This document shows, in pieces, positions 4,001-17,865 of a DNA stretch of 64,000 nt. The position numbers and the translations under genes were made by a program. Below the pieces are notes generated by a model, which saw only the letters and a list, made by a program, of their open reading frames with translations, was not told where the DNA came from and did no database searches. The stretch comes from a virus (taxonomy: Duplodnaviria > Caudoviricetes), in IMG/VR virus record IMGVR_UViG_3300044708_000078, positions 7,950-71,949 of that record, one strand, 5' to 3'. The number at the start of each line of letters is the position of its first letter. The first letter of the stretch is position 1.

Positions 4001-6117
4001 CGGAACTCGACGCTCTGACCAACGAATTCGACCGTCTTAGTCAGGCGACGAGGAAATCCGGCACCGAGTGGGGCCGAGCTGGCATGGCGCGTCAACAGGC
4101 AATAGATCAGGACTTCAGTCTTGTGGCGATGAAAGCGCGATTGAAAGCGGCAAAGGGTGACATACTCAGCGAGCAGGAGAATGCGAAGGTTGAAGAACTA
4201 CACGCGCGACTGGCGAAAGCCGAAGCTGACCTGGCGGACGCAAATGACAGGCTGGCCCAGCGCGATCTTCAGAAGCAGATCGACCGCGTGACTCGCCGTC
4301 GCCAGCGATCGGAGACAAAGGAGTCACTGGACGCGGAGTTTGCCAGATTGATCACCGAGTTCAGTAAGGCGCGGAAAGAGATTAAGAATGTACAGGCGTC
4401 AGGACTGGCCGGACTCGATCCCGAAGGTAAGCTCACTAAGCTCGTTGCGCAGATGGCCCGTAATCGTATCAAGGCGGGAATTAACTCTACCGAAGCGCTG
4501 GTACGTGAACTCTACGAAACTGTCAAGGAGCATGGCTGGTCGCGGGAAGATGTCGTCAGCGTCATTCGTCAGACGGTTCGTGAATCCGACGACGTGCTCA
4601 GCCGCTGGGACAAGACACGACAGGCACAGCTGTTGAAACGCGAAGCTGAATTACAACGCCGTCTTACCGAGAAGGACTACAGCAAGCTTCCACCCCGCGA
4701 GCGCCCGATCTACAATCGTGAAACTCGACGACTGGGGGAACAGGTTCAACACCTCAAGAACCGTTTCGACCTGGAAATGGAACGCGCCAAGCCCGGCCAT
4801 CTCTGGCGTCAGCTCAGCGGTATCCGTAAGTCATGGATGCTCTCCGGTATCTCCACGCAGGCGAAGAACATTGGCGGGACGGCGGGGTATCAGGTATTCG
4901 ATGAACTTGCCCGGTTCCCGGCGGTGATTGCCGATGCGGCAGTTGCTCCATTCACCGGACGCCGTTCGATTACCCAGTCACCCACCGCAATGCTCGACTC
5001 AGTGTTACATGCCGTCCGTACCGGAGGCCGTGAAGCTGGGGAAATCATGCGAGTCGGCGCGACGAAGGAGCAGTTGGAACGTCACCAGTTCAGTGAGATT
5101 GACACTGGTGTTAAGTTGATCGACTACACTTCAAACCTCGTCTTCCGCTTCATGTCCGCCTCGGATCGCGTCTTCTACAACTACGCGCTCAAACGCAACT
5201 TCCTCGATCGTGCATTGGCGCAGGCGAAAACTGAAGGGGCAGCGAATCCGCAACAGCGGGCGAAGGAATTGGCTGAACACCCGACAGAAGAACTCGACGC
5301 TGCCGCCAAGCACGATGCGCTTGTAGCGACGTTCAACAACAGCAACCAGCTCAGCGAGGCAATCAAACGTGCTCGCAGTAACTTCGGCTCTAAAGCCAAC
5401 TTCGCCATCGATCTCGTCATGCCCTTCGACCGCACCCCTACCAACGTCATCGCGCGAATCATCGAAGCGTCTCCAGCGGGCGCAGGTAAGGCGGCGTATC
5501 AACTGGCAAAAGCGGCGATCAACAGGTCAATGACTGTCGAGGAGCAGCGCCAGTTCAGCCAGACCGTCGGTCGTGCGACTGTCGGAACCGCTATCATGGC
5601 GCTGGGCTGGAGTCTCGCCGACAAACTCCTCGACGTGGAAGACTATCGTGTGTTGCTGAACATCGGCGGCTATCGCCTCGATCTGACCACCATCTCCCCG
5701 GTCGGCAACCTCATCGCCCTCGGCGCGCGGATGCGCAAGGCGTATGAGAAAGGAAGTTTCGCCGACGCCGCCAAAGCCGGGTTGCGGGTGCCGTTAGACC
5801 AGCCACTGCTGCGTGCAGGTAGTGAAGTAACTGAGGTAGTGCGCGACCCGGCCCGCAGCACCGCACGTTCAGGTGGACGGCTGGCGTCCAGTTTCATTCC
5901 CTTCGGTGGACTGGTGCGTGACATTGGTAAGGCCATCGACCCTGAGGAACGCAAAGCCAAGACCTTTAAGCAGCAGGTACAGCAAAACATCCCTGTCTGG
6001 CGTCAGCGACTTCCTGTGCGTCCGGTGAGACAGAAGCAGTTAACAACGGGCACGGGCCGTCCGAACGCGACTCGTCTAACCGCCGCCAGTCGTCCTACCA
6101 GTGGTCAGCGTCCATGA
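1063..6117 (+). CDS. Large internal virion/ejection protein with N-terminal Rpf/SceD-like lytic transglycosylase domain
   Basis: 1684 aa. IAQYESG (catalytic Glu), GPWQITNATW and AMEAPVEVQRQVAQTIFDNEGYAPW match the Rpf-type lysozyme-fold pattern. The C-terminal helical region has PFDRTPTNVI, as seen in podovirus ejection/polyvalent proteins. Confidence 0.75.
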   Translation: MPDDLDAYLNPAPRRPKQPLDLIAQYESGNRNIHQNVVPPGGGYNPSVGRVTGPSSAQGPWQITNATWRRYAPRANAGQYRSAMEAPVEVQRQVAQTIFDNEGYAPWALYNARLRAVLRRGEGDQYQHAQQPTSDLDRYLEPPGQTPPAQRQNERPSPVNPPASPVESREPSVPNATAILDNLNREFRRGVRQVKRQAAQQQPAVTGSSSIGELRRMDEPEAARIQRLQAEEAQRAGQLAPTADYMGTLNQRQRNTRAAQIAARRASEERADELRRQQEQPELDRLTQQYRQEIREAARITPNYGPTQWFQEALHKGEAGLLELGAAAARPFSTDKANTIRLHAEAMQRAAVEEGADRNVVSRALQDATAGLISTAPELAAMSLGAPPIGVFAAGGGARTYGRGGNAKQVLGEAAKGATIGAAFELPVPSRITSVPLRAATKGATVGGATGAIELASGASPKDAASAAITNALFGAYGELKHGITPQRVEEVVAQVPESMRNNPQVRELIDKARQDVRQAIEEKRRGREIKTDSLPPSRDLRGQQMFEMVPEGEVVLPRGGVENYRPSGLQGEQRGTQTEVQPGVAQERAAVEPAAPTTETVSARSAVDRGNVETESVRGSEQEATAQRFFHRDFGEVVESLNQRRVGKGRVRVVAEDGSEHVIKRSAMTGAGNQRAVPIRPEPIGESTSEQPSSLLSTLKKTYDFTPASTGRLVVYEGEHQGEKLRVRLRFSRDGKEVTVNLGEPSSPGPDALDFSRRRSFGMSTMLGLKRFLGERYPAVERLHFQREGSTGGEVGRQRQLALRPTKPEASDLNQYLEPAESPAMASSPKSPPVTATESQLPQPKEVTTRATTESLEPAVPQTTVKAAERAGAGSSPSSTAVRNEAMAEDRAARDLPELVAAEPRRATEVHQRALEANRADPRSVERLVTQALETDKNLTDVETAQLRLRAQEIKNREGGLLKEINSATDPQTIGEKRAELDALTNEFDRLSQATRKSGTEWGRAGMARQQAIDQDFSLVAMKARLKAAKGDILSEQENAKVEELHARLAKAEADLADANDRLAQRDLQKQIDRVTRRRQRSETKESLDAEFARLITEFSKARKEIKNVQASGLAGLDPEGKLTKLVAQMARNRIKAGINSTEALVRELYETVKEHGWSREDVVSVIRQTVRESDDVLSRWDKTRQAQLLKREAELQRRLTEKDYSKLPPRERPIYNRETRRLGEQVQHLKNRFDLEMERAKPGHLWRQLSGIRKSWMLSGISTQAKNIGGTAGYQVFDELARFPAVIADAAVAPFTGRRSITQSPTAMLDSVLHAVRTGGREAGEIMRVGATKEQLERHQFSEIDTGVKLIDYTSNLVFRFMSASDRVFYNYALKRNFLDRALAQAKTEGAANPQQRAKELAEHPTEELDAAAKHDALVATFNNSNQLSEAIKRARSNFGSKANFAIDLVMPFDRTPTNVIARIIEASPAGAGKAAYQLAKAAINRSMTVEEQRQFSQTVGRATVGTAIMALGWSLADKLLDVEDYRVLLNIGGYRLDLTTISPVGNLIALGARMRKAYEKGSFADAAKAGLRVPLDQPLLRAGSEVTEVVRDPARSTARSGGRLASSFIPFGGLVRDIGKAIDPEERKAKTFKQQVQQNIPVWRQRLPVRPVRQKQLTTGTGRPNATRLTAASRPTSGQRP

Positions 6118-9100
6118 TCTCTCTCACCCCTGAACAGGAAGCCGCGCTCAACGATCCGACCCTCGGTCTGAACGGCATGACGCCGGAGTCGTTTCAAAAA
6201 CTCTGGCCCTACTTCACCCCAGCGCAGAAACGGCAGTTCAAGAAACTTGCCCCAGTGCTGGAACGGTTATTTGCTCCGACGCCGGAGCAGATTGAGGCGG
6301 AAGGTGGGCGCGCGTGGGCCAAGCGTTTCTTCCCGCAGTCCTTCTCTCGCGACTTCACCAGCTATCAATCTGATTTCTGGATCTGGGGCTGGGAGATTCA
6401 ACCGGATGTCTATTACCGGCCCCGCGTGGAATGCGAACCGCGTGGGGTAGGCAAGAGCACTACAGCGGAGACGTGGCTGACTTCGATTCTCGCTCGTAAG
6501 CGTCGTCGCACTGTAGGGTATATCTCCGGTACCGACGCTAAGGCGAACCAGCACTTCGGCGGCGTTAAACGCAAGCTGGAGAACCCGGAACTATTAAAAA
6601 CTTACCCTCACCTAAAGCCGCAGGTGCAGAAGTATCGCAACGCCTTCAACTCATGGTCGCAGGACAGGTTGGTAACAGACGGCGGGCAAACGATCATTCC
6701 TATTACCCTGCAAGGTTCGAACCGTGGGTTTAAGTCTGAGGACGACATTCGGTTCGACTTATTGATCTTCGATGACATCGACTCTCTTGGTGAATCGCCG
6801 GACGTGATCGCCAAGAACCTTGACCTGCTAAAGTCTGAAATCCTCCTTGCCGGTTACGCTAACACGCTCATTGTTGTCTTCCAGAACTTGATCCATCGTG
6901 ACTCCATTGTCACGCAGGTCATGGATCACCGGGCGGACATTCTCAGTGACCGTGACTTCCGTGGGCCATATCCGTTGATGAGATGGTACGATGCGGAGAA
7001 AGTTGATCTTCCCGACGGGGGGAAGCGTTGGGTAATTACCGCAGGCGAGCCTTATGATCCGGCGATCTCTATTGAATACTGTGAATCAATCCTCAACCAG
7101 ATTGGCAAAGACTTATTTGATAGAGAATGCCAGCAGGATGTGTGGAAGGTTGCCGAGGACAAGGACTTCCGCGAGTGGGACGAGGTCTATCACATCATCA
7201 CGCAGAGTGAAATGGAGCGTGGGTTTCGCAACGTGCAGCTTCGTGACACCAGCGGCTTCTTCGTCCCTTCCCGCTGGCACGTTGGACGTGGCTTCGACTG
7301 GGGGTGCCTGCCGCTGGATACGGAAATTCTTACGAAGGACGGATGGAAGTCTCACGATCAGTTAAAAGTTGGTGAGTCCGTTGCGGGATATGACTGGGAA
7401 AGCTCGCAATCTATTGTATGGACTCCGCTGAAGAAGATTGTTTACAAGGATAGTCAACCGCTTGTAGAAATGCGTACTAAGTCATTCCGGTTTGTCTGTA
7501 CGCCTGATCATGCGTGGATTGTGAAACGCCGTAAACGACTAAAGAGAACTCGTGATACTTACCGTCGTCAGAACCTGGACACGATTTCATTTGGTGGTGA
7601 TAGGTCTTTGATAGTCGCCGCTCGTTGCGACGAACAAGGAGAAATTGAATGTTCTTCTGCAATGGCAGCAGTGCTTGGTTGGCTCGTAACGGATGGCTGG
7701 ACATATCGTAAGAAGGGTAAGCCAGCAGGCGCGATGCTTTGTCAGAAAAATCATCCTCAAGCTGTTATTGACGCTCTGGTTTTATCGGGGTTGGAGTGGA
7801 AAGAGGTCAAGCCAATGAAGAACGGTGTCCGGCTCTTTTACTTACCAGCGTCATCGTTCCGCAGATTGCGCAAGGTTACAGGTTATACGGGGAAGCAGTC
7901 TCTTAGTCCGATTGTCACACGTCTTTTACCTGAAGCGCGAAAAGCGATGCTTAACGCAATGTTGTTAGCGGAAGGGACAAATGGAGGCGCAAAACGTAAA
8001 TCGCTTTTCTGTCAGCAGAAAGGTTACGTGAGTGATGCCTTTCAAATTCTTGCATCTTTGTCAGGAATTCGATTAGGTATTCAGCGTGAACATCAAAGTC
8101 AATGGGGAACATCGCACCGTATTCCGTTACTGAGATTTCAAGCTATTAAAGAACCAAGACTAGTTCCGATTGAAGGTCTGCATCGAACGTGGTGTCCTAG
8201 CGTGAGTGAAGGTGCGGTCATTGCTCGCCAACGCGGACAGGTGACAATTACGGGAAACTCAACCCGTCAGCATCCCTCGGCAGTCGCCTACGTCACACGG
8301 CCCGACAAGACCTGCCCGCACGACGACGCACACTTCGTCTTCGCTGAAGTCGTCGCACCCAAATTCCCTTTCGACCCGTCGCTGGCGTCTGAAGTCGTCA
8401 GTCCCGGACGCGTGGCCCACGCGATCAAGCTCACTGAACGTAACTTCCACATTCAGTCATCGCAAATTGAGCAGTCAAAGATGTCGCATGAGGCATCCGC
8501 CGCCAAGAACACCCTGATGCTCGATCTGCCTAAAGAACTCACCATCTTCTTCAACAAGTGGAAAGCGGCGAAAGGTTCCGGTGTCCCACAGATTCAGAAC
8601 ATGCTGGAGATTGATCGCACGAAGGAGCATCCGTTCCGCGTCTACCCGCAGGGTCATCCGCATGCCGGGAAGCCGCTCATGGGCCGACCGCGTATCTACT
8701 TCGTCGTTGCTGACGGGCAAGGGGAACTCTATTGCGACGGTGATGGAAAGTTACGTGTACGTGGAGCGCGAGACTCACACGGACTGGCCCGCTGCCGCTA
8801 CGAGATGCCGTTGTACTCGCACCGGAACGCCGGGAAGAAGAAGATCGACGACGACTTCGTGGATGCGCTACGCGGGCTGATGTCTACCTTTGGTGTTCAT
8901 GCTGATGCGCTGACTGAATCCGAGGAATTGATCGCCGCGACCCCTAAAAAGTATCGTGCTGAGACTGTGTTCGGCGCTGACTATACGCCAGAGAAGGAGA
9001 TGAGCTTTCACTATCAGACCGCCCTCGCCAAACAGCGCGTCCAGATTGGCCAAGCCGTCACCTTCGACGAGTTCAACCAGCCCGTCGATCAACAAAATGA

Positions 9101-9125
9101 TGAACTTGTGGAAAGTTTGTGGTAG
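6114..9125 (+). CDS. terL: Terminase large subunit containing an intein
   Basis: Walker A EPRGVGKST, Walker B LLIFDDID, nuclease RGFDWG and C-terminal KKIDDDFVDALR; ATGA overlap with the upstream gene. Confidence 0.93.
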   Translation: MISLTPEQEAALNDPTLGLNGMTPESFQKLWPYFTPAQKRQFKKLAPVLERLFAPTPEQIEAEGGRAWAKRFFPQSFSRDFTSYQSDFWIWGWEIQPDVYYRPRVECEPRGVGKSTTAETWLTSILARKRRRTVGYISGTDAKANQHFGGVKRKLENPELLKTYPHLKPQVQKYRNAFNSWSQDRLVTDGGQTIIPITLQGSNRGFKSEDDIRFDLLIFDDIDSLGESPDVIAKNLDLLKSEILLAGYANTLIVVFQNLIHRDSIVTQVMDHRADILSDRDFRGPYPLMRWYDAEKVDLPDGGKRWVITAGEPYDPAISIEYCESILNQIGKDLFDRECQQDVWKVAEDKDFREWDEVYHIITQSEMERGFRNVQLRDTSGFFVPSRWHVGRGFDWGCLPLDTEILTKDGWKSHDQLKVGESVAGYDWESSQSIVWTPLKKIVYKDSQPLVEMRTKSFRFVCTPDHAWIVKRRKRLKRTRDTYRRQNLDTISFGGDRSLIVAARCDEQGEIECSSAMAAVLGWLVTDGWTYRKKGKPAGAMLCQKNHPQAVIDALVLSGLEWKEVKPMKNGVRLFYLPASSFRRLRKVTGYTGKQSLSPIVTRLLPEARKAMLNAMLLAEGTNGGAKRKSLFCQQKGYVSDAFQILASLSGIRLGIQREHQSQWGTSHRIPLLRFQAIKEPRLVPIEGLHRTWCPSVSEGAVIARQRGQVTITGNSTRQHPSAVAYVTRPDKTCPHDDAHFVFAEVVAPKFPFDPSLASEVVSPGRVAHAIKLTERNFHIQSSQIEQSKMSHEASAAKNTLMLDLPKELTIFFNKWKAAKGSGVPQIQNMLEIDRTKEHPFRVYPQGHPHAGKPLMGRPRIYFVVADGQGELYCDGDGKLRVRGARDSHGLARCRYEMPLYSHRNAGKKKIDDDFVDALRGLMSTFGVHADALTESEELIAATPKKYRAETVFGADYTPEKEMSFHYQTALAKQRVQIGQAVTFDEFNQPVDQQNDELVESLW
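7305..8258 (+). mobile_element. Intein (318 aa) with LAGLIDADG-type homing endonuclease
   Basis: Begins CLPLDTEILTKDGWK, ends VTITGN|S(+1). Endonuclease motifs VLGWLVTDG and MLNAMLLAEG. AT-richer than the exteins; inserted right after GFDWG. Confidence 0.92.
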
Positions 9126-9134
9126 CATCCGCGC

Positions 9135-9410
9135 GTGGCTGTACAGTTTCGCAACATCGCTGATATGAAACGACAGCCTCTCGGCGGTCTACCACAACCG
9201 ATGCGAAAACAGATGGAGGTTGGGCCAGTGCCTCTGACGGAAAAAGGTTCCAAGATCATGAGCGCCATGAAAAAGGAATACGGCGCGAAGAAGGGCGAGC
9301 AGGTGTTTTACGCCAGCCGCAACGCGGGGAAGATCAAAGGCGTCGATCCTGAGAGCCGCCCACGTCGTCGGATGAAAGTAAAGTATCCGAGTCCGTCTCG
9401 GCCTAAATAA
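9135..9410 (+). CDS. Small basic hypothetical protein
   Basis: GTG start; the protein-like segment IMSAMKKEYGAKKGEQVFYASRNAGKIKGV fills the gap after terL. Confidence 0.65.
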   Translation: MAVQFRNIADMKRQPLGGLPQPMRKQMEVGPVPLTEKGSKIMSAMKKEYGAKKGEQVFYASRNAGKIKGVDPESRPRRRMKVKYPSPSRPK

Positions 9411-9480
9411 AGTTGGGCGACTAGATGTAATCGCACCTGCCGCCCTGATCACCGTAGAAATCCGTCAAAGGAGAAGCACG

Positions 9481-10035
9481 ATGACCGCGATGGTTCTACT
9501 CTCGGAGTGGATGAAAAGTCAAGTTGAATTCTGGATGCCCGTACAAGAGTACGAAGGTTATTACGACGTTTCAAGTCAGGGTAGAGTTAGGAGTTGGCGG
9601 CATCCATGTCGTCGAGGTCATGTATGGAGACGCGATATTCCTCCGCGGGTTCTCAAGGAAAGCTTGAACAATAGAGGCTATCGCTGGGTAATCTTGGAAA
9701 ATGGGAACGGCAGCCGAAAAACATTGTTCGTGCATCAACTGGTCGCTAAGGCGTTTATTTTTAACCCAGAAGGGCGAACACGGATAAATCATCTTACAGG
9801 ACTTAAAAAGGATTGTCGCGTTGATGGGTTGGAATGGACTACCCCAGCCGAAAATAGCCGTCATGCTGTGCGGCATGGGTTATCGGCTGTTAAGTCAGAG
9901 AAACAGGTAAAAGAGATTCGCCGTACGGCTAAAAGTGGAATACCGCAAGCGGTAATAGCGCGGCAATTTGACTTAAGCTCTGGGGGTGTATGCTTGATTA
10001 TCCAGCGTAAGCGGTATGCTTACATAGACGATTAA
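9481..10035 (+). CDS. NUMOD4-HNH homing endonuclease
   Basis: NUMOD4 motif WMPVQEYEGYYDVSSQGRVRS; HNH motif VHQLVAKAF...INHLTGLKKDCRVDGLEWTTPAEN; C-terminal HTH; AAGGAG RBS. Confidence 0.88.
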   Translation: MTAMVLLSEWMKSQVEFWMPVQEYEGYYDVSSQGRVRSWRHPCRRGHVWRRDIPPRVLKESLNNRGYRWVILENGNGSRKTLFVHQLVAKAFIFNPEGRTRINHLTGLKKDCRVDGLEWTTPAENSRHAVRHGLSAVKSEKQVKEIRRTAKSGIPQAVIARQFDLSSGGVCLIIQRKRYAYIDD

Positions 10036-10578: not shown

Positions 10579-10950
10579 ATGTGGATTAGCCGAAGTGAGT
10601 TACGACGCCTGCTCCAGCAGGTGGCTGTCGCTGAGAAACGCGCCGCCGACGCCGAAGATCGTCTTGCCGCTGAGCGGGCGTCGAAAGACTGGCTGACAGT
10701 CCAACTGGCCTCGCGTGTGGTGACGAAGGGTGGTCAGTACGGGTTGGACCATGAGTCGCCTGCGTCATCTGCACCGTCTCCGCGTACTTACCCTCGCCAG
10801 TTAACTGAGGAAGACATCGCCAAGCGCGACTACTACGTCAGGTGCTATCGCGAAGCGGGGAGGTCGGAGGAAGACGCCGTGGCGCTGTTCGAGGCGGAGA
10901 TGAGGGGGGAGCGGGTGGTGTATCCGTATGAAAGCGAGGCTGAACAGTAA
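10579..10950 (+). CDS. Hypothetical coiled-coil protein
   Basis: 123 aa; its stop abuts the next ATG; no clear SD sequence. Confidence 0.7.
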   Translation: MWISRSELRRLLQQVAVAEKRAADAEDRLAAERASKDWLTVQLASRVVTKGGQYGLDHESPASSAPSPRTYPRQLTEEDIAKRDYYVRCYREAGRSEEDAVALFEAEMRGERVVYPYESEAEQ

Positions 10951-11247
10951 ATGGATCGTCGTGGATTTCTTTCACTATTAGGTCAGGCTGCTGTCGGTGC
11001 GACAGTGGTCTACAGCTTTCCCTCTATCGTCGTTCCGAAAAACATTCAGCCATATGGCTTGGCTCACTTCATCAATGAGGGACACACGTTTCGCGGACTT
11101 ACCACGTCAACATTTCCCGTTCTGAATGCGCCATCGCTTGATTTGGGTGGTGCGGTGCTAAGTCCTGAAATGTTTGAATACGCTAAGCGCAATCTTCAGG
11201 CAATGGTGCGGCAGACGAGTAAAAATCCAATGTTAATGTTCCTCTGA
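10951..11247 (+). CDS. Twin-arginine-signal protein carrying a major-capsid-homologous segment
   Basis: MDRRGFLSLL plus a hydrophobic stretch; GLTTSTFPVLNAPSLDLGGAVLSPEMFEYAKRNLQ aligns without gaps to the MCP segment GLDTSVYPDLNVPTVDLAGALLTPAAIENGKALLQ. Confidence 0.75.
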   Translation: MDRRGFLSLLGQAAVGATVVYSFPSIVVPKNIQPYGLAHFINEGHTFRGLTTSTFPVLNAPSLDLGGAVLSPEMFEYAKRNLQAMVRQTSKNPMLMFL

Positions 11248-11252
11248 TGTAA

Positions 11253-13886
11253 ATGGCCGCTGAACTTGCCAGATCCCCCGCGCAGCAACCTCCGGCGACG
11301 AATTTTGCGCCGCTAAAACCATTACTGAGTCTCAAGCATGGTGGCAAGAAACCTGCATCCTATATCGCCAAAGCAATCAAGGAACGTTTCGACCACTTTC
11401 ACCGCAAGGATAAAGATGTTTTCAGGGAGATCGTCAATGTTGGCTGGTATGTTAACCTGTTCGCTAACGGCCAGCAGTTCCCCGTTCGCAATCCCGTCAC
11501 AGGCTCATGGGGCGCACTTCCGCTCTCCGGCAACTACAACTCAGACCGCCGCGCACTCAACATCCTGCGCAACGTCGTAACCAATCTCCTCGGCAAGTGG
11601 GAAAATTCCTCGCCCGACATCATTATCCGTCCGGGTCGTAATCTCGACACTTGCGTCTCCGCCGCCAAAGCCGCCGACACCATCAACAACTACTACGAGC
11701 GCCAGTTCTACAACCACTGGTTCACGCAGCAGGAAGGTTTGATGGGGATGACTTTCGGCACCTATATCGACCGCTATCGCTACGACGAGTCCAAAGTGTC
11801 GATGAGCGTGATTCAGGACATCTTCGAGACGAAGGATGCGCAGTTTGGTTCCGGGCTGGGGTATTGCGCCGACTGCGATCACTTTGGCAACGACAGTGAG
11901 TTCAAACCGCAGCTTGGCGGTGATGGGCCGATGTCTCGTGCGCTGTGTCCGCAGTGTCGCTCAACTGCTGTCGAAGTTCTCGACGCCCCCATCGGTCAAC
12001 TCAGCAGCGTGACGAATCAGGTGAAGCGGCAGGTAGGGGATCTGGTTTGCGAGCTTCTCCCGATGCCTGCCTGCAGGTGGGACTTGACGCGACGGCCTGA
12101 GGACTCAAGCTGGTTCATCTATCGCCAGAACATTCCACGAGGTGCGGTGACGCGAGTGCTGGGGAATGTCCTGTTGCCGGAAGGAAAAGATGAGACTGAC
12201 TACGGACTGGAGACGCTGCGGGCGCTGGGAAAGCAGGGACAGGCGCTGGGAGGGTTCTCCGGGTTCGGCAACACAGGACGCTCTGACGATGCCGCACGTA
12301 CTGACGAATATACCTTTGACGAAATGTGGCTCTCACCCGATGACTACGCCGACATTAACCTCATCGGCGACGAAGAAACAGTCGATGGCCCACCACTGCC
12401 CAAGGGTAAACTCACCGATGTGTTCCCCGATGGACTCTGCGCAGTCGGGCTGAACAGCATGACCACGGTGCTCGCACTGTACTCGGAACAGCATCGCAAA
12501 CATATCGTTTCCGGCACGTGGTTCATGCAGACGGCGACGGGTGCGGGTCGAGGGCTGGCCGACTCTGTGGAAGTCCAGAAGCAATTCAACACCGGCAACA
12601 ATCAGGCTGCGTCGTATATGACCGCCACTTACTCCCCGGCCATCGGCTACGACAACCAGCTTATCTCCGGCAATAAGATGAAGTACATCGGCACGCCGCG
12701 CACGAACATCCCGTTCGACCTCACCAAGCTGCCGGAAGGCCGCTCGATGAAGGATGCGATCTTCCAGTTCGCCCCGACGGCCATGCCCAACCAGTTCTTT
12801 AACTACTTTCAGGACTTCCTCGGCTTCCTGATGAAGAAGACGAGCGGCGCAAGTGATTACGATCAGGGCGATCCCGGTATCACGGCAAATAACACCACCG
12901 CCACCGCAGCGGAGATTGATCAGGGAAACGCTGACTCGTTTAATGAACCTATCTTTCTTATCAAAGGCGACTGTCGCAAACGCGGCGCAGAGCTGACCAT
13001 CAACCTGTTCTGCCAGCACTTTCCGATGAAGCGGTACTTCGACCTCGGTGGGAAGTACGGCGAGCAGCAGGGCATCGAACTCAGCAGTGCGGACGTGAAA
13101 GCCGACCTGTCGTTTGAACTAGATAAAGGTAGCGTGATGCCGAAAGGGCCGTACACACGGCGTAAGAACCTGATGTCGTTCTACGGCGTGCTCGGCGGCG
13201 CAGAAGGCGTGGCGACGATGGAACAGACCAACCCGCGTCTGCTGAACAACACCGCACAGGAGTTTGATGTCGATCTGGAGATCAACGACTATGACGCAGT
13301 TGCTGAGTTGTGCCGACGACGACTGGAGCAGATGAAACAGGCCCTGAAGATTGGCGTCACCGACCCACAGTTGCTTGTTAGTGAAGCCATTCGACCGCCA
13401 ATCAGCAGCAAGGAACTCGACCTTGCGCAGAAAGGCAAGTGGTTTGCTTCATGGCTTTCAACTGACGAGGGACTGAACTCACCGATGCCGCTCCGCGCTG
13501 CGGCAGAACTACTGGTTGATGGACAGATTGCTGGCGCAACTCAGCAGGATGCGGAAGCCGCGCTGCAACAGGGTACAATCGCCGCTGCCGCTCAGGCACC
13601 AATGGCCCTCGGTGGCGCAGCGCTCCAGCAGCAGACCGAGCAGCCGGAGTCGCAGGAACCAGACCCCAGCGCTCAACTCCAATTTGCACAGGAGCAATCG
13701 ACGCAGCAGCATGAGGCGGAACAGAACGCGCTTGACCGCGAACATGAATCGTCGATGATGGACAAGGAACTGGCGAAGGACAAAGAGACGGCAAAGGTAG
13801 AAGCGGATCATAAAATTCGTATTGAGAAGTCCAAGCCAAAGAAGCCTGTGGTGAGACCTGTGAGTAAAGGAGCGGCCAAGAAATGA
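11253..13886 (+). CDS. Portal protein (P22-like size, with Zn-ribbon insertion)
   Basis: 877 aa between terL and scaffold/MCP; GRGLADSVEVQKQFN and GASDYDQG...TTATAAEI segments; acidic/Gln-rich C-terminal tail; YCADC...LCPQC insertion. Confidence 0.8.
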   Translation: MAAELARSPAQQPPATNFAPLKPLLSLKHGGKKPASYIAKAIKERFDHFHRKDKDVFREIVNVGWYVNLFANGQQFPVRNPVTGSWGALPLSGNYNSDRRALNILRNVVTNLLGKWENSSPDIIIRPGRNLDTCVSAAKAADTINNYYERQFYNHWFTQQEGLMGMTFGTYIDRYRYDESKVSMSVIQDIFETKDAQFGSGLGYCADCDHFGNDSEFKPQLGGDGPMSRALCPQCRSTAVEVLDAPIGQLSSVTNQVKRQVGDLVCELLPMPACRWDLTRRPEDSSWFIYRQNIPRGAVTRVLGNVLLPEGKDETDYGLETLRALGKQGQALGGFSGFGNTGRSDDAARTDEYTFDEMWLSPDDYADINLIGDEETVDGPPLPKGKLTDVFPDGLCAVGLNSMTTVLALYSEQHRKHIVSGTWFMQTATGAGRGLADSVEVQKQFNTGNNQAASYMTATYSPAIGYDNQLISGNKMKYIGTPRTNIPFDLTKLPEGRSMKDAIFQFAPTAMPNQFFNYFQDFLGFLMKKTSGASDYDQGDPGITANNTTATAAEIDQGNADSFNEPIFLIKGDCRKRGAELTINLFCQHFPMKRYFDLGGKYGEQQGIELSSADVKADLSFELDKGSVMPKGPYTRRKNLMSFYGVLGGAEGVATMEQTNPRLLNNTAQEFDVDLEINDYDAVAELCRRRLEQMKQALKIGVTDPQLLVSEAIRPPISSKELDLAQKGKWFASWLSTDEGLNSPMPLRAAAELLVDGQIAGATQQDAEAALQQGTIAAAAQAPMALGGAALQQQTEQPESQEPDPSAQLQFAQEQSTQQHEAEQNALDREHESSMMDKELAKDKETAKVEADHKIRIEKSKPKKPVVRPVSKGAAKK

Positions 13887-15756: not shown

Positions 15757-17034
15757 ATGCCAGCCGTACAATTCAGCCAAATCACCGACCTGAAGCGTCA
15801 GGCGGTGGAAAAGGACGTGCGCCAGTTCTATGAGAACAACGACCCCGGAATGCGCGCGTTCGGTAAGGCGGTAGACAAACCCAAGCTCACGGAGAAAGGT
15901 TATCGCCTGCCTGATTACGCCCGTCGGCCCACCGGCATGACGTGGTTCACTCCTGACAATTCCGACTTTAACCAGGCCAACGGCCCGCAGACGGTCTCGA
16001 TGTGGGTCTATCCGACCATGAGCGCGTGGCCGATGATCTGGGCCGGTTCCACCATCGAGTCGATGGAGAACGACACCGAGGACAACGTGCAGTCCTACGA
16101 TCAGGTGATGGTTCAGTACACTGATGTATTTCGCAAGCGTATGAACCAGTACTTCTATGGTACTGGCAATGGCGCGGTGGCTTACTCGGCGTCAACCATC
16201 ACCACCCTTGGCACGCAAACACTCTCCGGTACCACCACCGCCGCTACCACTCCCGGTCAGACAAAGGGGACGATGTGGCTGTGGGAGGCGGAGACTTATC
16301 AGGCAATCAACGCCTCCACCGGCGCGGTACGGGGCACGTTCACCGTCACTACCGCCGGTACGTCGTCCTGTACGATCAACCTGCTGAGCGGGACGATCTC
16401 CAGCGGCGATCCAATCGTCATTCAAGGTAGCTACCAACTCGCCATGCGCGGTCTCTACTGGCTCGTCAGCGACCAGAATCGCGTGTTGCAGGGATTGGAC
16501 ACCAGCGTCTACCCCGACCTGAACGTCCCCACCGTCGATCTCGCCGGTGCGCTGCTGACTCCAGCGGCCATCGAGAATGGCAAGGCGCTGCTCCAGACCC
16601 GCAACAATCAGGTCGAAGCCAAAAACAACCTGACGGCGTTCATCACCCCCGGCCAGTACTCCACGATTCGTAAGCAGGGTTACAACCTCGGCTACTACCT
16701 TCGTGAAGACGCTGGCTCGGATACGATGAAAGGCGTGCAGGGTGACTACACCGACGGCGATACTCGTTTTATTCTCGACGCCGACAACGACGAGGATCGG
16801 GTGCCGCTGACGAAGACCAGTGACTACAAAATCTACGAGATGAAACCGTTTGGCCCCTACAAGCGGGATGGGCTTGAAATGAGAATGTTGCTGGGTGCGA
16901 ATCAAACTGGCTCAGATAACTGGAGCCGAGCTGTTGGCTGGAAAGGGAACGTTGCTACTTTATCGGGGCGTGGAAGTGCTCTGATAAAACGTGCCCAACT
17001 GGCTTACGCAACTCAGATCGTGGCGGGTCTTTAA
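15757..17034 (+). CDS. Major capsid protein (HK97 fold inferred, with Thr-rich insertion domain)
   Basis: AAGGAG RBS; 425 aa; strongly C/G-ending codons; position after the scaffold; FYGTGNG followed by a beta-rich insertion then RGLYWLV. Confidence 0.85.
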   Translation: MPAVQFSQITDLKRQAVEKDVRQFYENNDPGMRAFGKAVDKPKLTEKGYRLPDYARRPTGMTWFTPDNSDFNQANGPQTVSMWVYPTMSAWPMIWAGSTIESMENDTEDNVQSYDQVMVQYTDVFRKRMNQYFYGTGNGAVAYSASTITTLGTQTLSGTTTAATTPGQTKGTMWLWEAETYQAINASTGAVRGTFTVTTAGTSSCTINLLSGTISSGDPIVIQGSYQLAMRGLYWLVSDQNRVLQGLDTSVYPDLNVPTVDLAGALLTPAAIENGKALLQTRNNQVEAKNNLTAFITPGQYSTIRKQGYNLGYYLREDAGSDTMKGVQGDYTDGDTRFILDADNDEDRVPLTKTSDYKIYEMKPFGPYKRDGLEMRMLLGANQTGSDNWSRAVGWKGNVATLSGRGSALIKRAQLAYATQIVAGL

Positions 17035-17043
17035 TTTAATCCG

Positions 17044-17865
17044 TCAGGCAGATTTTTTATTCCACGGAACCTGCTTAGGCCGTTCTTTGAAACCAAAAGT
17101 TTCTTCTGGTGTCCATCCAAGCTTGGACAGACGGATACGAGCGCGAGCGGAATTTATTCCAGCGCGATTACTCCAGTCGGTTAGGCATAATGTCTCACCG
17201 TTGATAGTAATCCAATGATTCGTTCGCTTGTTTCTGTTCTGTTCAGTTTGGGTGCGCCACTGGCAATTAAGGGTGTGATGATTAGCTAAGCATTCTTCGC
17301 ACTGACCGCACCAATAACCTTTGTTGTTGTCGGTTCGGTCAATAGTATGTTTCTCGGTCGTGGGTTCACCCATAACCGCAAGAAAGTGGGGAAAGCTTAG
17401 AAATCCAGCGCAGATTGTGATGCCCCTGCCGCCGTAGTCGCTAAACTGCGGATTCTTTGGGTTAGATGTTCGATCCTTTACACCGACCCAAATTTCGTAA
17501 ACGCGGCTCTTTCGCTTGCCGCCATTGCGCATCACCGAAGTATGGCCGTGGATGTAGTTCTTCTTACGGGTTACTTCACGAAGCAGGCAGCCGCAGGATT
17601 GGACGTTCATACGAAGAAGATGTCGCTGATCCACGGCTTTGACCGCACCACAGTTGCACAGGCACAACCAGACGTACTCGATTTTGCGCTGACCGAGATA
17701 GCCGAGCACGAACAGTCGTCCAAAACGTTGCTCGATTAAAGAAGCTTTAGGTTTACGGGTCCGATTGTATTTGAAAACTGAATCAGGTGGGTTAGAATCC
17801 GAACCAAACATTGGCAACTTCTCCTTTAACCAAGTGGATTGCTGATGCGGGACGTTCGGGTTCAT
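17044..17865 (-). CDS. HNH homing endonuclease inserted antisense after the MCP
   Basis: RFGRLFVL...WLCLCNCG; YEIWVGVKDR...SDYGGRGITIC; TIDRTDNNKGY...NCQWRTQTEQNRNKR; AT-rich. Confidence 0.88.
   Translation of the reverse strand: MNPNVPHQQSTWLKEKLPMFGSDSNPPDSVFKYNRTRKPKASLIEQRFGRLFVLGYLGQRKIEYVWLCLCNCGAVKAVDQRHLLRMNVQSCGCLLREVTRKKNYIHGHTSVMRNGGKRKSRVYEIWVGVKDRTSNPKNPQFSDYGGRGITICAGFLSFPHFLAVMGEPTTEKHTIDRTDNNKGYWCGQCEECLANHHTLNCQWRTQTEQNRNKRTNHWITINGETLCLTDWSNRAGINSARARIRLSKLGWTPEETFGFKERPKQVPWNKKSA

Follow-up and report, generated by a model that had tools for sequence, protein, structure and literature searches.

Capsid assembly is a cytoplasmic process, and an export signal on a capsid-derived sequence is therefore unexpected. 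A short gene in a phage genome raises the question of what a protein that joins these two parts would do. The window analyzed here is a 64,000-nucleotide stretch, bases 7950-71949 of a 71,949-bp IMG/VR virus record rated complete by CheckV, and all positions are window positions unless another locus is named. The gene, ORF98, lies at 10951..11247 on the + strand (ATG at 10951, TGA at 11245-11247) and encodes 98 aa, comprising a leader and a passenger that resembles the phage's major capsid protein (MCP). The leader, residues 1-33 (10951..11049, +), contains the twin-arginine motif R3 R4 x F6 L7. The passenger, residues 35-98 (11053..11244, +), is a homologue of a segment assigned to the MCP A-domain, covering a loop, a helix, and the start of a strand. 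The reading developed below is that ORF98 may be a membrane-targeted mimic of the MCP.

The genes around ORF98 are head and packaging genes. In order on the + strand, a large terminase gene with an intein-like insertion is followed by a 91-aa ORF, a NUMOD4/HNH endonuclease gene, a 118-aa gene, a 123-aa gene, and ORF98. Downstream lie a probable portal gene (877 aa; 11253..13886, +), assigned through a weak match to phrog_156 'portal' (E 0.012), a 68-aa gene, a 483-aa gene, and the gene for the probable 425-aa MCP (15757..17034, +), which matches phrog_14242 'major head protein' (E 4.5e-5). The 483-aa gene precedes the MCP gene in the usual scaffold position and matches no family. The ATG of ORF98 is immediately 3' of the TAA of the 123-aa gene (10579..10950, +), and the portal gene's ATG (11253) is 5 nt past the ORF98 stop; the 123-aa and portal genes border a variable slot. 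An earlier note, made from the sequence alone, had described an intact frame abutting the upstream stop, and its coordinates and frame hold. A GAGG at 10936..10939 (+), 11 nt 5' of the ATG, reads as a possible Shine-Dalgarno core. Between 8900 and 11400, no promoter-like site was found on either strand and no terminator-like site on the + strand. Because of this and the close gene packing, ORF98 looks like a member of the late head operon. Judged by its context, it is a real accessory gene of this late head-and-packaging operon and is predicted to be translated.

Intein- and endonuclease-like sequences occur in the same region. The large terminase gene (6114-9125) encodes a 1003-aa product with an insertion of ~317 aa at about residues 399-715. 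The insertion is absent from the 748-aa homologue at locus L004, in which the flanking parts are contiguous. The Cys at its start and the G-N at its end, before Ser, give it the look of an intein whose core is of endonuclease size. A NUMOD4/HNH homing-endonuclease-like gene is located near the head genes (9481-10035, +), and a gene that appears HNH-like by eye lies just after the MCP gene on the opposite strand (17044-17865, -). At locus L001, a NUMOD4/HNH gene (722-1309) directly follows the ORF98 homologue.

The passenger's likeness to the MCP is significant by several measures. BLASTP aligns ORF98 42-98 with MCP 239-296 (22/58 identical, 38%; E 1e-10), and a profile-profile comparison pairs ORF98 35-90 with MCP 226-287 at 97.5% probability (E 6e-12). 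Together, these comparisons delimit MCP residues 226-296 (16432..16644, +) as the matched segment. The Smith-Waterman score of the pair is 100, compared with 29 +/- 4 for 2000 shuffles (z = 17), and none of the 2000 shuffles reached it (Gumbel P about 6e-11). A direct count confirms the 18 identities in a 35-residue core from which the earlier note had proposed the resemblance, and its call for shuffle statistics is thus answered in favor of homology. No significant match to ORF98 other than the MCP was found in the phage genome or in the six-frame translation of the window. Positions conserved in the family of small proteins related to ORF98 are those conserved in the MCP family. At the nucleotide level, third codon positions of ORF98 and the MCP gene are only 31% identical, and GC content differs (48% in ORF98, 57.5% in the MCP gene). 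These values indicate that the copy is old and that the likeness has been kept at the protein level, so the passenger is, by this comparison, an old copy of an MCP segment and not a recent duplication, as the note had held in rejecting a recent tandem copy. The near-random third positions further suggest that selection on the protein, and not gene conversion, maintains the likeness.

Structure prediction gives a partial view of the copied segment. The AF2 model of ORF98 contains an N-terminal helix (residues 3-21) and a helix at 72-90 (pLDDT about 90), outside which confidence for the passenger is low. The MCP model is poor (pLDDT 52). In it, the copied stretch ends with a helix (269-283) and a strand (292-296) and lies beyond the long spine helix and a beta-domain insertion. 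From the fold, this order suggests that the stretch is the start of the HK97-fold A-domain. The complete HK97 fold, with N-arm, E-loop, P-domain/spine helix, and A-domain, is not present in ORF98, which represents MCP 226-296 only. A Foldseek search with the MCP model returned nothing at E 0.001, and its two weak top rows were phage capsids; sequence searches found no PDB relatives of the window MCP. Complex prediction with ORF98 30-98 and the MCP, run without controls, scored 0.00 and is neutral on binding. The best-predicted part of the MCP is a different region, residues 140-222 (16174-16422; pLDDT 82-88), an all-beta insertion after the spine helix. Its Foldseek neighbors are beta-barrel domains of ATP synthase subunits, and it is probably a surface insertion domain.

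The leader displays the features of a twin-arginine translocation (Tat) signal. ORF98 begins with M-D-R-R-G-F-L-S, continues with a moderately hydrophobic stretch rich in G, A, and T, and then reads F-P-S-I-V-V-P-K-N-I. The consensus (S/T)-R-R-x-F-L-K near the N-terminus is matched by D-R-R-G-F-L-S at residues 2-8, and the tail of the leader, which contains Pro and Lys, is conserved as FPS-x-x-VPKNI. Among 130 family members, RR occupies positions 3-4 in 111, and RRxF is found in 124 with L, I, F, M, or V as the next residue, which is L in 107 of these. In an alignment of 43 divergent members, no column other than R, R, and F is invariant. Across the family, the 18 aa after RRxF have a mean Kyte-Doolittle hydropathy of 1.35, consist of G, A, T, and S to 46%, and contain 14% Leu. 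All 124 RRxF members have a Pro after the hydrophobic stretch, and 107 of the 124 have a basic residue in the next 12 aa. The h-region, helix breaker, and basic c-region of Tat signals are thus present family-wide, and we take these features to be textbook marks of such signals. Model searches gave graded results. Pfam models did not match ORF98 at E 0.1, and its score against TIGR01409 (TAT_signal_seq) was 13.4 bits, under the cut-off of 16.7. PF10518 matched 17 of 43 family members (E up to 1; best 7.3e-5), and the Rieske-type anchor models PF25471 TM_PetC and PF10399 weakly matched 8 and 2 of the 43. The claim of a twin-arginine-type signal in the earlier note therefore stands for the canonical motif and features, but ORF98 does not reach the TIGR01409 cut-off. 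From the features, we infer that the leader is a Tat-type signal whose bearer would depend on Tat.

Whether such a signal is cleaved bears on where the passenger would end up. ORF98 lacks an A-x-A signal peptidase site, and V-Y-S before F-P is a weak candidate. In many distant family members, Pro directly follows an A-x-A-like site. A Pro right after an A-x-A site blocks signal peptidase. Given the lack of a clear A-x-A site and the conserved Pro-rich tail, ORF98 is probably an uncleaved N-in anchor and not a protein with a cleaved signal. In Rieske PetC and the hydrogenase small subunit, Tat anchors likewise have RRxFL and a mildly hydrophobic stretch rich in G and A, and lack an evident cleavage site. 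However, ORF98 is viral and carries a 65-aa capsid fragment in place of a cofactor domain, and the leader of its family is conserved over its full length across unrelated phages. A feature search of a protein atlas also returned Tat-bearing hydrogenase subunits, as leads only.

Family searches recovered at least 130 clusters at 50% identity, so the gene is not a one-off. A word-indexed search retrieved four homologues of ORF98 (99-114 aa, 54-65% identity), all of which keep both the leader and the MCP-like part; the homologue check proposed in the note thus came out in its favor. An exhaustive profile search with an E limit of 0.001 gave 140 representatives, and 130 of these are small (51-148 aa) and have the leader in common. 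These counts are of cluster representatives at 50% identity and not of phages. Matches of MCP size (369-438 aa) align through the passenger part of the profile only, and no long protein with the leader, that is, no fused full-length form, was found among the profile-search matches. ORF98 shares the features that define the family, which are an N-terminal leader, a length of ~50-150 aa, a single copy, and a place in the head/packaging region. In the window and in the loci searched from four other phages, the leader was present once per stretch, and no other leader-like sequence was found in these stretches of five phages. Two candidates for further relatives were rejected. Leader-like matches in tail-like proteins of phage G002 are of low complexity and were not confirmed by the leader model, and P0089 (2116 aa) owes its match to a beta-domain motif that occurs as a repeat.

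Apart from the Tat signal models, no Pfam, PHROG, or NCBIfam family, with the libraries taken together, matched ORF98 or the 43 scanned members. A tblastn search of 50,697 phage records gave no match to ORF98, the window MCP, or the leader ORF of locus L018. Narrow-pattern scans of species-representative bacterial genomes also gave no match, and so provided no prophage copy and no clue to the host. Evaluated by sequence, the family is a large, undescribed one whose members resemble capsid protein and occur in soil phages that are unrelated to one another.

A second clade of ~70-kb phages, with 32-34% GC, has the leader as well (G002/L009, L018, L019, and L007). In this low-GC clade, the leader ORF lies directly upstream of the large terminase gene, and a small terminase subunit was considered for this reason. 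The assignment was rejected, as neither ORF98 nor the 43 members have a Pfam, PHROG, or NCBIfam terminase match; a single member has one stray weak match to a T7 large-terminase domain (E 0.1). The leader is conserved over all 33 residues across phages of 32-55% GC. Between the window and L018, it is 72% identical over 33 aa (E 3e-16) despite a 20-point difference in GC, whereas the terminases, portals, and MCPs of the two have no BLASTP similarity (E 0.2 or worse). The leader is the most conserved element of the family and looks mobile.

Conservation over the whole 33 residues is unusual for a mere signal peptide and raises the possibility that the leader itself is the effector. The leader would bind host Tat, and the passenger would serve as a bulky or sticky plug, perhaps via the MCP, that blocks the translocon or makes it leak and thereby alters the envelope or the timing of lysis. 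The many distant members with Pro directly after an A-x-A-like site are also in line with this idea. However, manipulation of Tat leaves the preferential MCP origin of the passengers unexplained, and no precedent for it was found; we regard it as very unlikely. That origin is part of the support for the mimic reading.

MCP origin of the passenger extends well beyond ORF98. Passengers were compared with an HMM of the window-type MCP and, for the second clade, with an HMM of the G002-clade MCP (371-372 aa), which matches phrog_9953 'major head protein' (E 1e-7). Like ORF98, 80 of the 130 family members have a passenger built from pieces of the resident MCP type: 29 match the window-type MCP only, 51 the G002-type only, and none both. 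The 29 window-type passengers always correspond to about MCP 220-290. The G002-type passengers are more varied, with 26 members matching the N-arm only (about 5-40), 11 the A-domain region (about 175-280), and six the C-terminal strand region (about 305-346). Eight carry combinations, four of which are non-collinear, with the C-terminal piece followed by the N-arm. L018 and L019 illustrate the latter arrangement, each with two separate pieces of the phage's own MCP (E 1e-7 to 2e-5). In the L018 leader ORF, residues 38-54 match own MCP 320-336 (65% identity, E 6e-6) and residues 58-87 match own MCP 7-36 (43%, E 1e-7). In that of L019, 36-56 match own MCP 317-337 and 57-81 match own MCP 13-37. 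Third codon positions of these passengers are also near random relative to the MCP. The MCP gene makes up less than 2% of such a genome, and on these counts the in-frame derivation of 80 of 130 passengers from it cannot be accidental capture.

Other MCP-like fragments were observed in the low-GC clade. In G002 (L009, 8696-8983), a leaderless 95-aa ORF matches the P0063 passenger (E 1e-14) and weakly the A-domain region of G002's own MCP (E 0.24); it is possibly an MCP-fragment gene that lacks the leader. In L019, three small ORFs situated before the leader ORF, at 4939-5286, 5893-6246, and 8594-9133, give matches of marginal significance (E 0.001-0.02) to MCP segments that are also copied in leader ORFs. 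MCP-like snippets may therefore be scattered more widely in this clade. A 345-aa protein without a leader, P0105, contains two passenger-like segments, at 60-105 (E 1.5e-12) and 134-164.

Two properties of the passengers bear on what they could act upon. First, 50 of the 130 members have no detectable MCP piece, and these include the copy of G002 itself. Second, passengers match 8-12 of the 13 MCPs of their type about equally, so that a closer likeness to the own MCP than to other same-type MCPs was not measurable. Retention of the motif that the whole MCP family conserves means that the passenger could engage related MCPs, and a weapon against co-infecting relatives is conceivable, either as a dominant-negative MCP fragment that poisons assembly or as a membrane protein that excludes superinfecting phages. 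The gene's accessory, fast-evolving, and patchily distributed nature would suit such a role. With no own-versus-other specificity seen, however, the phage's own MCP would be poisoned too, and a Tat-exported fragment would miss cytoplasmic MCP. Incoming phage capsids remain outside the cell, which also argues against such a weapon. This reading is improbable. For the mimic reading, the same two properties, the 50 members without an MCP piece and the absence of own-MCP specificity, likewise count as points against.

Selection on ORF98 was assessed with the homologue at L004 (complete phage G001). The two proteins are 55% identical, compared with 95% for the MCPs of these phages. dN/dS is about 0.15, a rough value since dS is saturated, and constraint is seen in the leader as well as in the passenger. 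Purifying selection acts on this intact gene; a ratio near 1, which the earlier note had named as a sign against its proposal, was not obtained. This bears on whether ORF98 could be the decaying remnant of an MCP duplication, functionless and with a Tat-like start that arose by chance. The passenger is indeed only a fragment, modeled with low confidence outside one helix, and the nearby homing endonuclease genes could promote ectopic repair. Decay is nevertheless at odds with the intact frame and the dN/dS value, with RRxF in 124 of 130 clusters, and with the recurrence of the same architecture in unrelated clades, and has very little probability.

Comparison of close relatives shows that the gene is dispensable. 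In six of the seven IMG/VR relatives whose MCP is 85-97% identical to that of the window, the sequence spans the slot bordered by the 123-aa and portal genes. A leader ORF is present in this slot in one of the six (G001 only). In L023, the closest relative (MCP 97%, portal 82%), and in L026, the portal gene directly follows the 123-aa gene. The remaining slots hold ORFs unrelated to ORF98, of 89 aa in L027 and 65 aa in L029, and a Cys-rich 92-aa ORF with a 107-aa ORF in L028. The junction of the 123-aa and portal genes is, on this comparison, a variable cargo slot. Because five of six relatives with nearly the same MCP have no such gene there, ORF98 is best described as accessory cargo that is not needed to build this capsid. 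In the cultured Tunturiibacter phage Tunturi_1, whose MCP is 27% identical to that of L018, the position directly upstream of the terminase gene was examined and contains no leader ORF.

These absences weigh on a morphogenetic role, in which the leader would dock at the membrane or TatBC while the passenger co-assembles with MCP, scaffold, or portal, and so nucleates or tethers procapsids or chaperones the MCP. The location of the gene speaks for a helper of this kind, as it lies in the head/packaging operon, where it is coupled tightly to the portal gene in the window and, in phages of the low-GC clade, to the gene for the large terminase. In HK97-fold capsids, the N-arm, A-domain helix, and C-terminal strand make subunit contacts, and these are the parts that passengers copy. 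A Cpn10 gene near the leader ORF in L019 could also be counted in its favor. However, the relatives with an empty or differently filled slot and the vacant position in Tunturi_1 run against the idea, and passenger content and order vary between relatives, unlike those of a precise structural part. A membrane anchor for procapsid assembly, one of the three functions suggested in the earlier note, is accordingly weakened, and we consider a morphogenetic helper rather unlikely. The other two, a capsid decoy and a competitor of related phages, may still apply. As an observation on the low-GC clade, the Cpn10 (GroES-like) gene is found at 9148-9447 in both L019 and L020, three genes upstream of the leader ORF and four upstream of the gene for the large terminase. 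It is reminiscent of T4 gp31, a protein required for the MCP to fold.

The reading of ORF98 as a Tat-targeted MCP mimic fits these data best. Dispensability, fast turnover of passengers, patchy distribution, and apparent horizontal spread form the pattern of a conflict gene and not of core assembly, and the mimic would be used in conflict with the host or with other phages. The repeated choice of MCP pieces, seen in 80 of 130 passengers and in the own-MCP pieces of L018 and L019, points to MCP mimicry as the selected property. MCP homology, the family-wide Tat features, and the purifying selection on ORF98 are likewise in agreement. Under this reading, one highly conserved leader would have spread among otherwise unrelated ~70-kb phages; in each clade it is joined to pieces of that clade's own MCP type. 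The Tat-type signal would direct ORF98 to the cytoplasmic membrane and its Tat translocase, where the protein would probably stay as an uncleaved N-in anchor, much like the signal anchor of Rieske proteins. Its passenger of ~65 residues, an ancient copy of MCP A-domain segment 226-296, would expose peptides from an MCP surface or interface, either at the membrane or in the periplasm. A factor that recognizes the MCP would then bind the mimic and not the real MCP. The target would most plausibly be a host defense sensor triggered by capsid protein, which the mimic would sequester or perhaps carry out through Tat.

With this mechanism included, the mimic reading is the leading one, held tentatively and at somewhat less than even chances. 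Several points weigh against it besides those already given. ORF98 remains under the TIGR01409 cut-off, and a Tat-exported decoy would have no known target, since the known MCP sensors are all cytoplasmic and we know of none in the periplasm. Anti-defense genes are not usually expressed late with the MCP, so late co-expression would be an unusual timing. A broader version of the reading concerns the whole family. A mobile Tat-leader cassette would spread among unrelated tailed phages and repeatedly capture and reshuffle fragments of the resident MCP, and the resulting exported or membrane-tethered capsid mimics, which would be the bacterial-virus counterpart of the hepatitis B e-antigen, would lure an MCP-recognizing host factor to the membrane or drag it from the cytoplasm via Tat as a hitchhiker. 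This version is possible but doubtful.

Known systems provide partial parallels for an MCP mimic. Among host defenses, Lit senses the Gol peptide of T4 gp23. CapRel-SJ46 senses the MCP, as summarized in PMC13728456. Both capsid-triggered defenses recognize the MCP or a short MCP peptide, the type of target that a mimic could intercept. They differ from ORF98 in that they are host systems with cytoplasmic sensors, whereas ORF98 is phage-encoded.

Among viral proteins, the hepatitis B precore/e-antigen combines a signal peptide with capsid-protein sequence; it does not assemble, is exported, and is dispensable for replication. ORF98 resembles it as a dispensable, capsid-derived look-alike with a signal. 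Unlike ORF98, the e-antigen belongs to an animal virus, uses the Sec/ER route, contains nearly the full-length core protein, and is made from the same gene through an upstream start. The ORF98 family consists of separate genes with a Tat-type signal and short, sometimes scrambled fragments. Internal proteins of T4 carry a capsid-targeting sequence of ~10 aa that is removed by the prohead protease, and their C-termini are polymorphic. The likeness lies in a short conserved N-terminal module with variable passengers and in an accessory character linked to an arms race, but the targeting sequence of the internal proteins is not Tat-like and their passengers are not capsid fragments. The T4 vertex protein gp24 is an MCP paralogue and, like ORF98, a second MCP-derived gene in the same phage. 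However, gp24 is a complete HK97-fold subunit in the shell, while ORF98 represents about 15% of the fold with an export signal.

No literature was found on phage genes that combine a Tat signal with a capsid fragment or on phage-encoded MCP decoys. Capsid-triggered defenses, but no capsid decoy, appear in a 2026 review on phage countermeasures, and the HXS paper employs a Tat signal purely as a tool (PMC13128918). The statement that no gene of this architecture had been described is therefore borne out, with no precedent found in Pfam, PHROG, or NCBIfam families, in cultured phages, or in the literature.

The finding has several implications. A whole family of this design points to selected self-mimicry, which is undescribed for phages. 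If the target is indeed a capsid-sensing defense, these proteins would form a new class of counter-defense. The copied segments would then offer a bioinformatic handle on the MCP surfaces that host immunity reads. An optimized Tat binder, if the leader is one, could be used as a tool to drive export or to block Tat. The family is also a clear example of gene birth by fragment capture.
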